DNA of 64,000 bases from Escherichia coli (GTDB taxonomy: Bacteria; Pseudomonadota; Gammaproteobacteria; Enterobacterales; Enterobacteriaceae). Below are positions 36,612 to 39,950 of the stretch, piece by piece. Made by a program: the position numbers and the translations under genes. Under the pieces are notes generated by a model. That model was not told the origin of the DNA and did no database searches. It saw only the letters and a program-made list of their open reading frames with translations. The stretch's first letter is position 1, and the number at the start of each line of letters is the position of its first letter. The DNA is taken from NCBI RefSeq assembly GCF_048403405.1, contig NZ_CP183129.1, one strand, 5' to 3'.

Positions 36612-37202
36612 TTATTGCTGAAAAATTATACCAATATTGCTCTCACCCGCCTCACGCAGGTCTGCCCTAAGGCCTTTTATCAGCTCGATATCGCGTTCTT
36701 CGCACTCAGCTAAAAGTCGGAATATTTCCCACTGAATGTCCCATTCTTGCTCTACAGCTGGGTTTTCTTTGAGCTCTTCATCGCTCATTTCGCGACCAGC
36801 CTGAGTCATTTCCAGCATCGCAACGGTCGTGATGGAGGTCTTACTCACTTCCACCGCGTGTTCGAGCGTTTCACCACTCAAACGCGAATGGACCAGTTCA
36901 CTTAACGCCACGCAGGCATCGATTGCCGGATAAACGCCGTACAGATCGAAATCGTCGGCTGAAGGAATCGCTTCTTCAAATTTCTCCAGTTGGCTGTCGA
37001 AATTTACTTTTGCGTCTTTGACGGTCAGCGTTTCCCAGATGAGATCGAGAATACGGCGGTAAATTTGCCCATCACCAAAACCAGTTTGCTGACAGAATAC
37101 GGCGTAATTGGGGTACATGCGTTCGCATAAGCAGGCCATAAAAGTGACGTGCTGCCAGCTTTCCAGGCGCTCCAGACGCAGATGAATTGGGTTTTGTAAC
37201 AT
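36612..37202 (-). CDS. yjaG: DUF416-family protein YjaG
   Basis: 196 aa, MLQNPIHLRLERLESWQHVTFMACLCERMYPNYAVF... Confidence 0.85.
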   Translation of the reverse strand: MLQNPIHLRLERLESWQHVTFMACLCERMYPNYAVFCQQTGFGDGQIYRRILDLIWETLTVKDAKVNFDSQLEKFEEAIPSADDFDLYGVYPAIDACVALSELVHSRLSGETLEHAVEVSKTSITTVAMLEMTQAGREMSDEELKENPAVEQEWDIQWEIFRLLAECEERDIELIKGLRADLREAGESNIGIIFQQ

Positions 37203-37244
37203 GTTGAGTTCTCAAATACGGAAATTATCCGCAGTTTACCTGAA

Positions 37245-37916
37245 TTAGGGCTGATTTGCTGTATAGCGCACGAACGCCGGACGTTCCGAGGCCACCGCGT
37301 CCGCCCAGCGCGTTGGCTCCGGCAGACGATAGCCTTTCATGCAGCGTTGTACCCACGCCAGCGCGCTGTCCACGCTGACCCGATGACCGGTAGCGATAAA
37401 CAACGGGTTACAGCGCGCTTTGCTGCGCCAGACCCAGGCCAGCTGCTCGCCTTTATCCATCAGTGGGGCCAGCGCGCCCGGTTCGCTGGAGAGCGGTTCG
37501 AATTTACCGCAGAGCCGTTTTTTCGCCACGCCAATGGTCGGCACATCCACCAGCAAACCGAAGTGGCTGGCGACACCAAGACGGCGAGGATGCGAGATCC
37601 CGTGACCATCGACAAACACTAAATCCGGCTTTTGCGACAGCATCTCCCACGCTGCCAGCAGCGCAGGATATTCGCGGAAGGAGAGAAAACCTGGAATGTA
37701 AGGCATGGTGGTGGCGATGCGGGCCACTTTATACTCCACCAGCTCAAGCAAGGGGTATTTCAGCAGCACCATCGCCGCTCGCGTCACTTCTCCGCCCTGC
37801 TCAAACCCGACATCGGCTCCGGCGATCAGATCCGGCGGATCTTTATCGAGTCGATCCTCGCGGATCACAGAAGAAGCCAGTTCAATTTGTTGAGCGCGTA
37901 ATGACGCGAGATCCAT
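37245..37916 (-). CDS. nfi: Endonuclease V (deoxyinosine 3' endonuclease)
   Basis: 223 aa, [42 protein letters not shown]... Confidence 0.92.
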
Positions 37917-38072
37917 AATCGCTCCTTAGAGCCTGGTCCACCAGGCGTAATTGTTGAAGGCAGTTTGAGGCCGGACAGCGCGGAAAAACCGGAGCGTACA
38001 CGTAGTACGTGAGGATTTTGAGCACTGCCCGGCCTCAAAATGGCAAATAAAATAGCCTGATGGACCAGGCTC
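37917..38072. repeat. About 150-bp nested palindromic intergenic element between nfi and hemE (unclassified, MITE/RSA/ERIC-like)
   Basis: Terminal inverted repeats AGAGCCTGGTCCACCAGGC / GCCTGATGGACCAGGCTCT, inner inverted repeat TTTGAGGCCGG / CCGGCCTCAAA, central palindrome CACGTAGTACGTG; fills the whole nfi-hemE gap. Confidence 0.55.
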
Positions 38073-39137
38073 TTAGCGGTGATACTGTTCAGATAACCGA
38101 TGCACTGCCTCCACAAACACGCCAGCATGTTCTGGCGGCACATCCTGATGAATGCCGTGACCAAGGTTAAAGACATGACCTTCACCGTGACCGAAACCTG
38201 CAAGTATAGTCGCTACTTCTTCTTCAATGCGGGCTGGCGGCGCGTACAGCATCGACGGATCCATATTGCCCTGCAACGCGACTTTATTGCCCACGCGGCG
38301 GCGCGCATCGGCGATGTCCGTTGTCCAGTCGAGGCCCAGCGCATCGCAACCGGTTTCTGCCATCGCTTCCAGCCACTGTCCGCCGCCTTTGGTAAACAGC
38401 GTGACCGGTACGCGGCGACCGTCGTTTTCACGCAGTAAACCATCAACAATTTTATGCATGTAATAAAGCGAGAACTGTTGATAATCGCGCCCGGTAAGCA
38501 CGCCGCCCCAGGTGTCGAAAATCATCACAGCCTGAGCACCGGCTTTAATCTGCGCATTCAGATACAAAGTGACGCTTTTCGCCAGTTTATCGAGTAGCGC
38601 GTGCAGCGCCTGCGGATCGGCATACATCATTTTTTTGATCACGGTGAACGCTTTGCTGCTGCCGCCTTCCACCATGTAGGTCGCCAGCGTCCACGGGCTG
38701 CCGGAAAAACCAATCAGCGGCACTTCGCCTTTCAGTTCGCGACGAATGGTACGCACCGCGTTCATCACGTACCCCAGTTCATCTTCCGGGTCCGGAATTG
38801 GCAGTTTATCGACGTCAGCTTTGCAGGTGACTGGCGAGGTAAAACGCGGACCTTCTCCGGCTTCAAAATAGAGCCCTAACCCCATCGCGTCCGGCACGGT
38901 GAGGATATCGGAAAAGAGGATCGCCGCATCCAGCGGGTAGCGGCGCAGCGGTTGCAAAGTCACTTCGCACGCCAGCTCGGCGTTTTTGCACAGCGACATA
39001 AAATCGCCCGCCTGGGCGCGCGTGGCTTTATATTCCGGTAGATAGCGACCCGCCTGGCGCATCATCCATACTGGAGTGACATCAACGGGCTGGCGCAGCA
39101 GCGCCCGCAGATAACGATCGTTTTTAAGTTCGGTCAT
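38073..39137 (-). CDS. hemE: Uroporphyrinogen decarboxylase
   Basis: 354 aa, [50 protein letters not shown]... Confidence 0.95.
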
Positions 39138-39176
39138 TTTGGCTGTTCCTTAGTGCGTCAGGCGGTCAGTGTATCA

Positions 39177-39950
39177 TCACTCATACTCTGCCCGACACAT
39201 CGCCACCGTATCTTCTATCAGACGGCGCGCTACGGTGCCGGGCGGCGGGAGTAACGGCAAATCGTCATAGCGATACCAGTTCGCCTCGAGCAATTCTTTC
39301 GGGTCGATCACGATGTCGCCGCTGTCGTATTCCGCCATAAACGCGGTCATTAAAGACTGAGGAAACGGCCACGGCTGGGAAGTCACATAACGCAAGTTTT
39401 TAACTTTAATTCCGCTCTCTTCCATCACTTCCCGCGCGACCGCCTGCTCGAGGGTTTCGCCCACTTCGACGAATCCGGCAAGTACCGTATGGACACCGTT
39501 ACGATGGCGGGTATGCCGGGCAAGGAGGATCGAATCATCGCGACGGATGGCAACAATAATGCAGGGGGCGATTTGCGGATAGTAACGCTCACGGCAATGG
39601 CTGCACAGCATCGCCCATTCGGTTTTGCTCGGATACATTTCATGCCCGCAGTAACCACAGTATTTATGCGATCGGTAAAACTCCGCCAGTTGTACGCCTC
39701 GTCCGGCCAGTTGAAACAGCCCAACATCGAGATCAATGACCTGACGTACCGACCCCATATCGTGACGCCGCTGCTGTTGTACTAACCAAACAGGTTCCCC
39801 CTGCCATTCGCCGATTTGTAGTGCGCGCTGACCCACAAGATCGAAATTTGCCGCTTCGCCATATGGCAATTCTCCCTTCGGCAACCATAATTTTTGTTCA
39901 TGGCTGACGACCCACCAGCCGTGATCTAATTTTTCAATTATACGATCCAT
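39177..39950 (-). CDS. nudC: NADH pyrophosphatase (Nudix hydrolase)
   Basis: 257 aa with zinc-ribbon CGYCGH...CSHC and Nudix box ([23 protein letters not shown]). Confidence 0.92.

Follow-up and report, generated by a model that had tools for sequence, protein, structure and literature searches.

In Escherichia coli K-12, the genes hemE and nfi lie almost end to end, with a spacer of 9 bp in MG1655 (hemE ends at 4198780 and nfi starts at 4198790). In the window, by which we mean the whole 64,000-nucleotide stretch of E. coli contig NZ_CP183129.1 (assembly GCF_048403405.1) that was analyzed, the same two genes, both on the minus strand, are 156 bp apart (37917-38072). This raises the question of what the additional DNA is, how it came to be there, and what it might do to the expression of the downstream gene. 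A sequence-only reading of the window had noted this gap, stated that only a few base pairs separate the two genes in K-12, and suggested a miniature inverted-repeat element (MITE) or a member of the RSA/ERIC class of repeats; the ORF coordinates and the MG1655 spacer bear out the first two of these statements. On the basis of the analyses described here, we consider it very probable that the gap holds a 144-bp nonautonomous MITE of the RSA family, which was inserted within E. coli by an IS5-family transposase acting in trans, with duplication of the trinucleotide TAA, and which may have consequences for expression.

Alignment of the filled site of the window with the K-12-type empty site revealed a clean gain of 147 bp, consisting of a 144-bp element and a 3-bp duplication (Table 1). 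The empty site reads CACCGC-TAA-GGAG and the filled site reads CACCGC-TAA-[GAGCCTGG…CCAGGCTC]-TAA-GGAG. The original K-12-type 9-bp spacer, GGAGCGATT, is retained at 37917-37925. The sequence-only reading was right that the gap contains an inserted element but drew its limits too widely, the inserted DNA being 147 bp rather than the entire gap. Because the TAA is duplicated, both the stop codon of hemE and the TAAGGAG ribosome-binding context of nfi are kept. A family profile run against the window with nhmmer matched at model positions 2 to 143 (E = 1.5e-42), and this is the single family copy that the profile search found in the window.

The element is built almost entirely of nested inverted repeats. 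Its terminal inverted repeats are GAGCCTGGTCCATCAGGC and GCCTGGTGGACCAGGCTC, and the terminal arms of the repeats detected in the gap as a whole (37918-37946 and 38055-38083) are 29 nt long and 83% complementary. The inner arms contain a perfect 11-bp core, and a 5-bp direct repeat, CTAAG, lies on both sides of the palindrome. Two minus-strand entries in the ORF list touch the element, one of 47 aa with a GTG start inside it (37882-38025) and one of 112 aa with a TTG start that spans it (37865-38203). We judged both to be spurious and, as had been proposed from the sequence, the element contains no gene. A promoter-like site, which is a consensus match only, occurs on the plus strand at 37890-37919 (TTGAGC, an 18-nt spacer, and CATAAT); it is antisense to nfi and directed into the element.

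Table 1. Features of the hemE-nfi region in window coordinates
Feature	Position	Strand	Evidence
nfi (endonuclease V) CDS	37245..37916	-	ORF list; annotation of identical DNA; Pfam PF04493 on homologues
nfi Shine-Dalgarno AAGGAG (putative function), kept by the duplication	37922..37927	-	Sequence; predicted fold
Downstream copy of target-site duplication (TAA), recreating TAAGGAG before nfi	37926..37928	-	Filled/empty alignment
RSA-family MITE, 144 bp, ends 5'-GAGCC...GGCTC-3'	37929..38072	- (family-model orientation, that of hemE-to-nfi transcription)	Family profile; filled/empty alignment; rod-like fold
Right terminal inverted repeat, itself a hairpin (GCCTGGTGGACCAGGC on the minus strand, -11.1 kcal/mol)	37931..37946	.	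Repeat search; fold
Inner inverted-repeat arm	37961..37990	.	Partner 38013-38042
Central palindrome CGTAC-ACGTA-GTACG, tip of the rod	37995..38009	.	Sequence; minimum-free-energy structure
Inner inverted-repeat arm	38013..38042	.	Partner 37961-37990; 30 nt, 80% complementary
Subterminal T-rich motif ATTTTATTTG, invariant among E. coli copies	38044..38053	-	Invariant columns of the alignment; terminator scan; comparison with IS ends
Left terminal inverted repeat, itself a small hairpin (AGCCTGGTCCATCAGGCT, -9.7 kcal/mol as RNA)	38054..38071	-	End pairing covaries in the family
Upstream copy of target-site duplication (TAA), the hemE stop codon	38073..38075	-	Empty-site alignment; family-wide duplication statistics
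hemE (uroporphyrinogen decarboxylase) CDS	38073..39137	-	ORF list; annotation of identical E. coli DNA; filled/empty alignment

The transcript strand, read from hemE to nfi, folds as one long rod with a predicted free energy of -90.3 kcal/mol. The mean of 200 dinucleotide-preserving shuffles was -49.8 ± 4.4 kcal/mol (z = -9.2), and none of the 200 folded as well; folded as single-stranded DNA, the element reaches -43 kcal/mol (z = -9.3). The nested inverted repeats are far beyond chance, and the 11-bp inner core and central palindrome described from the sequence are real by both the repeat search and the fold. An Rfam scan of positions 37000-39500 gave only subthreshold chance matches, the best being sX9 (31.7 bits against a threshold of 44).

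The distribution of filled and empty sites indicates when the element arrived. Of 5,426 complete E. coli genomes, about 305 (~6%) carry the filled allele (at least 95% identity), including those of strains 042, PCN033, and APEC O2-211, and the flanks are found without the element in the remaining ~5,100 (~94%). The 9-bp junction (…TAA GGAGnnnnn ATG) is present in all of the outgroups examined, namely Salmonella enterica, Citrobacter braakii, and an Escherichia-like lineage whose Nfi is 92% identical, and also in a second metagenome contig with 92% Nfi identity (L145), where hemE is fragmented in the gene calls. This makes the empty state ancestral and places the gain of the element within E. 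coli. Together with the clean alignment and the duplicated TAA, this establishes the extra DNA as an insertion, as had been proposed, and the 150 bp are absent from the hemE-nfi site of K-12.

The converse history, in which the element was ancestral at this locus and was lost from K-12 and most other E. coli by precise excision or by slippage between direct repeats, has some points of attachment. Precise excision that removes one copy of the duplication occurs in elements of the PIF/Harbinger type (PMC2836001), the CTAAG repeat beside the palindrome could promote slippage, and the filled alleles sit on flanking haplotypes that have diverged from one another. We nevertheless regard such a loss as very improbable, given the empty junction in every outgroup examined and in most of the species, and given that the element looks younger than its flanks. 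In three filled haplotypes, the flanking coding sequence differs by ~2-5% (about 20 of 412 positions), whereas the element itself has just 2 differences in 144 positions, both of them within its right terminal repeat. At 37931-37946, the window has the allele GGTGGACC of that repeat, and strains 4314 and MFDS1019527 have GTTGAACC; the former pairs perfectly with the left repeat, and the latter resembles the copy between cysP and ucpA in K-12. These comparisons suggest that the element is younger than the flanking haplotypes and spread by recombination, or else that it is under constraint.

The element is a member of a dispersed family, as a check of copy number had been expected to reveal, and is not unique in the genome. 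A sensitive blastn search found relatives in all but one of the 5,426 E. coli genomes (5,425); the median is 5 places per genome and the maximum 9, with 6 in K-12. Five of the six K-12 copies were mapped in MG1655, three on the minus strand (cysP-ucpA, glrK-qseG, and pyrH-frr) and two on the plus strand (ycbX-rlmL and pheM-pheS). The hemE-nfi copy is 80-86% identical to the resident E. coli copies. A search of the genome collection with a pattern for the conserved core recovered at least 120 loci, and the matches listed include copies from Yersinia, Citrobacter, Photorhabdus, Enterobacter, Serratia, Erwinia, Edwardsiella, Pectobacterium, Dickeya, Kluyvera, Hafnia, Rahnella, Pantoea, E. albertii, and E. 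whittamii. Edwardsiella ictaluri and Photorhabdus namnaonensis each have at least eight. Copies within E. ictaluri and within Erwinia are 76-94% identical to one another, and five full-length copies at different loci of P. namnaonensis (L052-L059) are 95-99% identical, which indicates a recent burst of amplification in that genome.

With its two duplication copies, the unit measures 144 + 2×3 = 150 bp. The original GenBank record of K-12 lists RSA repeats as units of 150/151 bp in six copies, two forward and four reverse (PMC5172473, Table 1), with which the split of two plus-strand and three minus-strand copies among the mapped places is compatible. RSA is given as the older name of the BEE95 elements in the citation of Bachellier and Hofnung (1996) by PMC3751351. 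The assignment of the family to RSA is supported by unit length, K-12 copy number, and strand split, as distinct from alignment with an RSA reference sequence. Our literature search for such a reference sequence, or for an account of RSA as a MITE, returned only the table of lengths and copy numbers and the one citation. The current NC_000913.3 record has no RSA features, and the fabI region of K-12, which we guessed from the name BEE95, has no copy of the family. Like the hemE-nfi element, RSA repeats, which are known from E. coli and Salmonella, are intergenic, palindromic, and enterobacterial; the hemE-nfi copy differs from them in occupying a site that is empty in K-12 and in having the terminal repeat CTGGTCC instead of CTATCCC.

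Other enterobacterial repeats of this kind fit poorly. ERIC/IRU units and REP/BIME clusters are also intergenic and palindromic, and ERIC, at 127 bp, is of similar size. Both 22-nt ERIC primer cores (ERIC1R and ERIC2) have more than 7 mismatches to the element, and the best match to the 13-nt REP core has 4 mismatches. In K-12, ERIC/IRU is present in 19 copies of 127 bp (PMC5172473), against six copies of a 150-bp unit here. As the Rfam scan likewise matched no family, we regard an ERIC/IRU or REP/BIME origin as extremely improbable. Of the two names put forward from the sequence, RSA thus stands, by length and K-12 copy number, and ERIC does not, and the classification as a MITE agrees with the anatomy of the element.

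The manner of insertion can be read from the flanks of the family at large. Among 49 near-full-length copies from many genera, the flanking trinucleotides are identical in 41, and 40 of these 41 are TWA (TTA in 22 and TAA in 18); shifting the register by 1-3 nt leaves 0-2 copies with identical flanks. Only one of the 49 has nonidentical triplets that include TWA (CTT on the left and TTA on the right), and TWA is for this reason a true duplication and not merely a preferred flank. The reconstructed target is Y-TWA-R, mostly CTWAG, with C or T before the triplet at 32 of 36 sites and G or A after it at 29 of 36. In only 3 of 38 copies does the duplicated triplet serve an upstream ORF as its stop codon, which rejects a preference for stop codons. 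The hemE-nfi element accordingly combines terminal inverted repeats, a TAA/TAA duplication, a noncoding length of 144 bp, membership in a multicopy family, and both filled and empty sites. The remaining hallmark of a MITE, an autonomous element with matching ends, is provided by an 869-bp IS5-family insertion sequence, which we describe below.

A 3-bp TWA duplication within an extended target is the signature of the PIF/Harbinger superfamily and of Tourist MITEs (PMC2836001). The bacterial IS5 family is related to PIF/Harbinger (PMC12730594), and IS5-family elements that duplicate 3 nt, TAA included, have been described (PMC2516522). Tourist-like MITEs such as mPing (PMC2836001) are likewise short and noncoding, with terminal inverted repeats, a 3-bp TAA/TTA duplication, a target preference that extends beyond the duplication, and mobilization in trans. 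They are eukaryotic, however, whereas the RSA element is bacterial, is a near-complete palindrome rather than a sequence with terminal repeats only, and, unlike the Tourist-like systems, has no ORF1/Myb partner. The kinship is one of mechanism and transposase superfamily, not of sequence.

Within bacteria, the closest parallels in behavior are the YPAL, ERIC, and Correia-type MITEs, which also lie between genes or just after stop codons, form stable RNA hairpins, and are polymorphic for presence and absence. Their sequences differ from that of RSA, and effects on mRNA have been demonstrated for them and not for RSA. ERIC and Correia elements duplicate TA.

A scan of the collected family loci for segments of the form GAG…CTC with TWA on both sides led us to a decayed IS5-family element in Edwardsiella ictaluri, which is intact as an 864-bp form on plasmid pEI1, with the ends GAGCC…GGCTC and a TAA duplication. 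This IS1421/IS402-like element shares with RSA no more than the GAGCC ends and the TAA duplication; although of the same class, it was rejected as the partner of RSA. A search of plasmids with its DDE domain retrieved an 869-bp insertion sequence on E. coli plasmid p3R-1. This element has two overlapping ORFs, with DUF4096 and DDE_Tnp_1/DDE_Tnp_1_2 domains, and matches the NCBIfam model NF033580 (IS5 family). PGAP labels it "frameshifted," an A7 run lies in the overlap of the ORFs, and a programmed frameshift between the two is probable. Among named elements, it is closest to "IS5-like element ISPrst3 family transposase," with 86% identity. The same ends recur in relatives of 866, 867, and 873 bp from E. 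coli and Pectobacterium; the 866- and 867-bp forms are flanked by TAA duplications, and the flanks of the 873-bp copy in Pectobacterium colocasium can be read in two ways, either as TAA to the left with TTA to the right or as a 4-bp TTAA.

The ends of the 869-bp element, GAACCTATCCCAAAAGG and GAGCCTATCCCAATAGG, match the RSA consensus, GAGCCTATCCCATTAGG and GAGCCTATCCCAGTAGG, at 16 of 17 positions. Four independent insertions of it have the duplications TTA, TAA, TTA, and TTA, each preceded by C, and two of them interrupt mglC and ydiF, each in a single strain. It is present on the chromosomes and plasmids of 201 of the 5,426 E. coli genomes, with as many as 23 places in one genome and identities of at least 99% (L153, 474-1342; L155; L156; L157). 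With so many near-identical places per genome, on chromosomes and plasmids alike, the element is therefore active now. This insertion sequence and the filled hemE-nfi site occur together in strains 104 and 13P477T.

The resemblance extends inward from the ends. The right inverted repeat (IRR) of the insertion sequence continues …AGGATTTTATTCCAGA, which aligns with the invariant RSA motif …AGGCTATTTTATTTGCCA; 20 of 1,000 shuffles score as well in this subterminal alignment. Subterminal ATTTTATT and AATTGT motifs are common to RSA and the ISPrst3-like insertion sequences of 866-873 bp, and the T-rich motif of the window copy aligns with the ATTTTATT of the IRR. Both groups also duplicate TTA or TAA and prefer C before the triplet. 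The hemE-nfi element differs from these insertion sequences in having no transposase gene and a length of only 144 bp, and its core of ~75 nt has no detected similarity to them. From these sequence comparisons, the best reading of RSA is that of a MITE with terminal and subterminal transposase-recognition sequences in common with ISPrst3-like insertion sequences. Our searches of the accessible literature did not find this link, which may exist in ISfinder or in older reviews.

For the hemE-nfi copy itself the match is looser, since its variant terminal repeat (GAGCCTGGTCCA...; GAGCCTGGTCCAYCAGGC) agrees with only 12 of the 17 terminal nucleotides of the insertion sequence. The same variant occurs in copies from Erwinia, Pantoea, and Citrobacter amalonaticus, and our searches found no insertion sequence that carries it. 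Nor did they find a near-identical sister of the hemE-nfi copy: the best among the matches listed, from Kluyvera, is 88.6% identical by BLAST and 0.879 in the family-model alignment. As to a donor, the best match on plasmids was 86% identical, and the metagenomes returned only the same hemE-nfi locus. Within the collected loci, pairs of RSA-type repeats 300-4000 bp apart, sought as the ends of a parent element, proved in every case to be neighboring copies or chance pairs.

A 5.6-kb E. coli plasmid (CP057269.1; L136, 2263-2288) carries a 20-bp palindrome, GAGCCTATCCCAATAGGCTC, which is flanked by TTA on both sides and abuts a truncated ORF for an ISAs1-family transposase. It looks like a minimal derivative comprising just the two terminal-repeat halves of an ISPrst3-like insertion sequence or of RSA.

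On this basis, the insertion at hemE-nfi can be conceived as follows. An IS5-family DDE transposase, presumably supplied in trans, would have cut a C-TAA-G target with a 3-bp stagger; the TAA of this target being the stop codon of hemE, the element would have been joined in with TAA duplicated. The insertion would have been tolerated with both the stop codon and the ribosome-binding context intact, and the resulting allele would now segregate in the minority of E. coli that carry it. More broadly, we tentatively propose, as somewhat less than an even chance, that the RSA (BEE95) repeats are Tourist-like MITEs of an ISPrst3-like insertion sequence still transposing in E. coli and that the hemE-nfi copy represents a within-species mobilization onto an operon stop codon. 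This proposal offers a concrete origin and mechanism for a repeat family that has been annotated for decades without explanation, and by naming a candidate transposase it makes the mobilization of RSA directly testable. A MITE in an intergenic gap is itself ordinary biology, and the hemE-nfi copy is a strain-variable addition to the known RSA family; the added value is modest and lies in linking RSA with a TWA-duplicating mechanism and with a currently active IS5-family element.

The conservation of the rod bears on whether the element might instead be primarily a functional RNA. Base pairs were counted on the structure of the window copy, since RNAalifold had given a poor consensus on the family alignment. 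For 62 distinct copies, 87.8% of the pair cells retain the rod, as opposed to 28-40% in controls in which the 3' partner was slid by 1-3 columns. Fourteen pairs show changes on both sides (e.g., 7:138, A-T/G-C, and 38:105, G-C/A-T), and the pairs of the central palindrome are conserved in 57-62 of the 62 copies. Owing to several conserved G·T pairs, 41 of the 62 copies fold slightly better as the transcript-sense strand. Such conservation fits the conserved terminal repeats of diverging subfamilies and selection on an RNA or DNA hairpin equally well.

A terminator, an mRNA stabilizer, an RNase III site, or a small RNA under selection, with the transposon traits secondary, might accordingly be considered. 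In this reading, the compensatory changes across genera and the better fold of the transcript-sense strand would reflect RNA function, as would the old copies fixed at pheM-pheS, glrK-qseG, and pyrH-frr. Immediately after the hemE stop codon, moreover, the left hairpin is followed by AUUUUAUUUG, a combination to which the terminator scan assigned a terminator-like score (38071-38044, minus strand). The alignment of the T-rich motif with the subterminal inverted repeat of the insertion sequence provides a different explanation for its conservation, namely transposase binding, and different MITE subfamilies would likewise be expected to have terminal repeats that covary. Relative to flanking genes, 40 family copies are in sense and 25 in antisense orientation, a weak bias among copies that are not independent; because no strong orientation bias exists, selection for a terminator or RNA role is unsupported. 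The Rfam scan gave no match either, and most strains have no element at hemE-nfi. We therefore consider a primarily RNA-based role improbable and retain the transposition of an RSA-family MITE as the explanation of the gap.

An effect of the insertion on nfi expression, as the sequence-only reading had raised, is nonetheless plausible. The hemE-nfi transcript would gain a 144-nt rod-like hairpin, and the close (9-nt) translational coupling of nfi to hemE would be lost in favor of a structured 144-nt spacer. In the predicted fold, the first bases of the nfi Shine-Dalgarno sequence lie at the foot of the long stem, whose base might partly occlude them. Partial termination at the hairpin and AUUUUAUUUG after the hemE stop codon is possible, as is cleavage of the hairpin by RNase III. 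The net outcome would be an altered, probably lowered, output of nfi. An RSA copy lies inside the glrK-qseG-glrR gene cluster; if these genes are cotranscribed, as we take them to be, the element does not necessarily prevent read-through. On the gene strand, the scan detected no promoter-like site within the element, and a literature search for the hemE-nfi polymorphism returned nothing. A subset of E. coli thus carries a 144-nt hairpin between hemE and a DNA repair gene, which may change the level of endonuclease V and which can serve as a simple presence/absence marker.

Several individual copies elsewhere deserve mention. The pheM-pheS copy of K-12 (L142, NC_000913.3, 2989-3131) has the attenuator terminator of pheM on one side and the start codon of pheS on the other, is oriented antisense to pheS, and thus lies inside the leader of an essential attenuation-controlled operon. 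Copies of the family are also present on large conjugative plasmids. On Citrobacter plasmid pCFR-4109 (NZ_CP026234.1; L134, 3005-3149), one with a TTA duplication is situated between genes for an acyltransferase and an RND efflux pump and adjoins a mer operon. The 36 nt at its left end, together with the upstream CTTA, are matched at ≥99% on 67 large plasmids from genera that include Klebsiella, Citrobacter, Enterobacter, Kluyvera, and Escherichia, and plasmid copies are a possible route for RSA between genera. Finally, an enterobacterial RSA core occurs on a 234-bp contig of an alphaproteobacterial assembly, that of Methylobacterium mesophilicum (L117), where it is most likely contamination.
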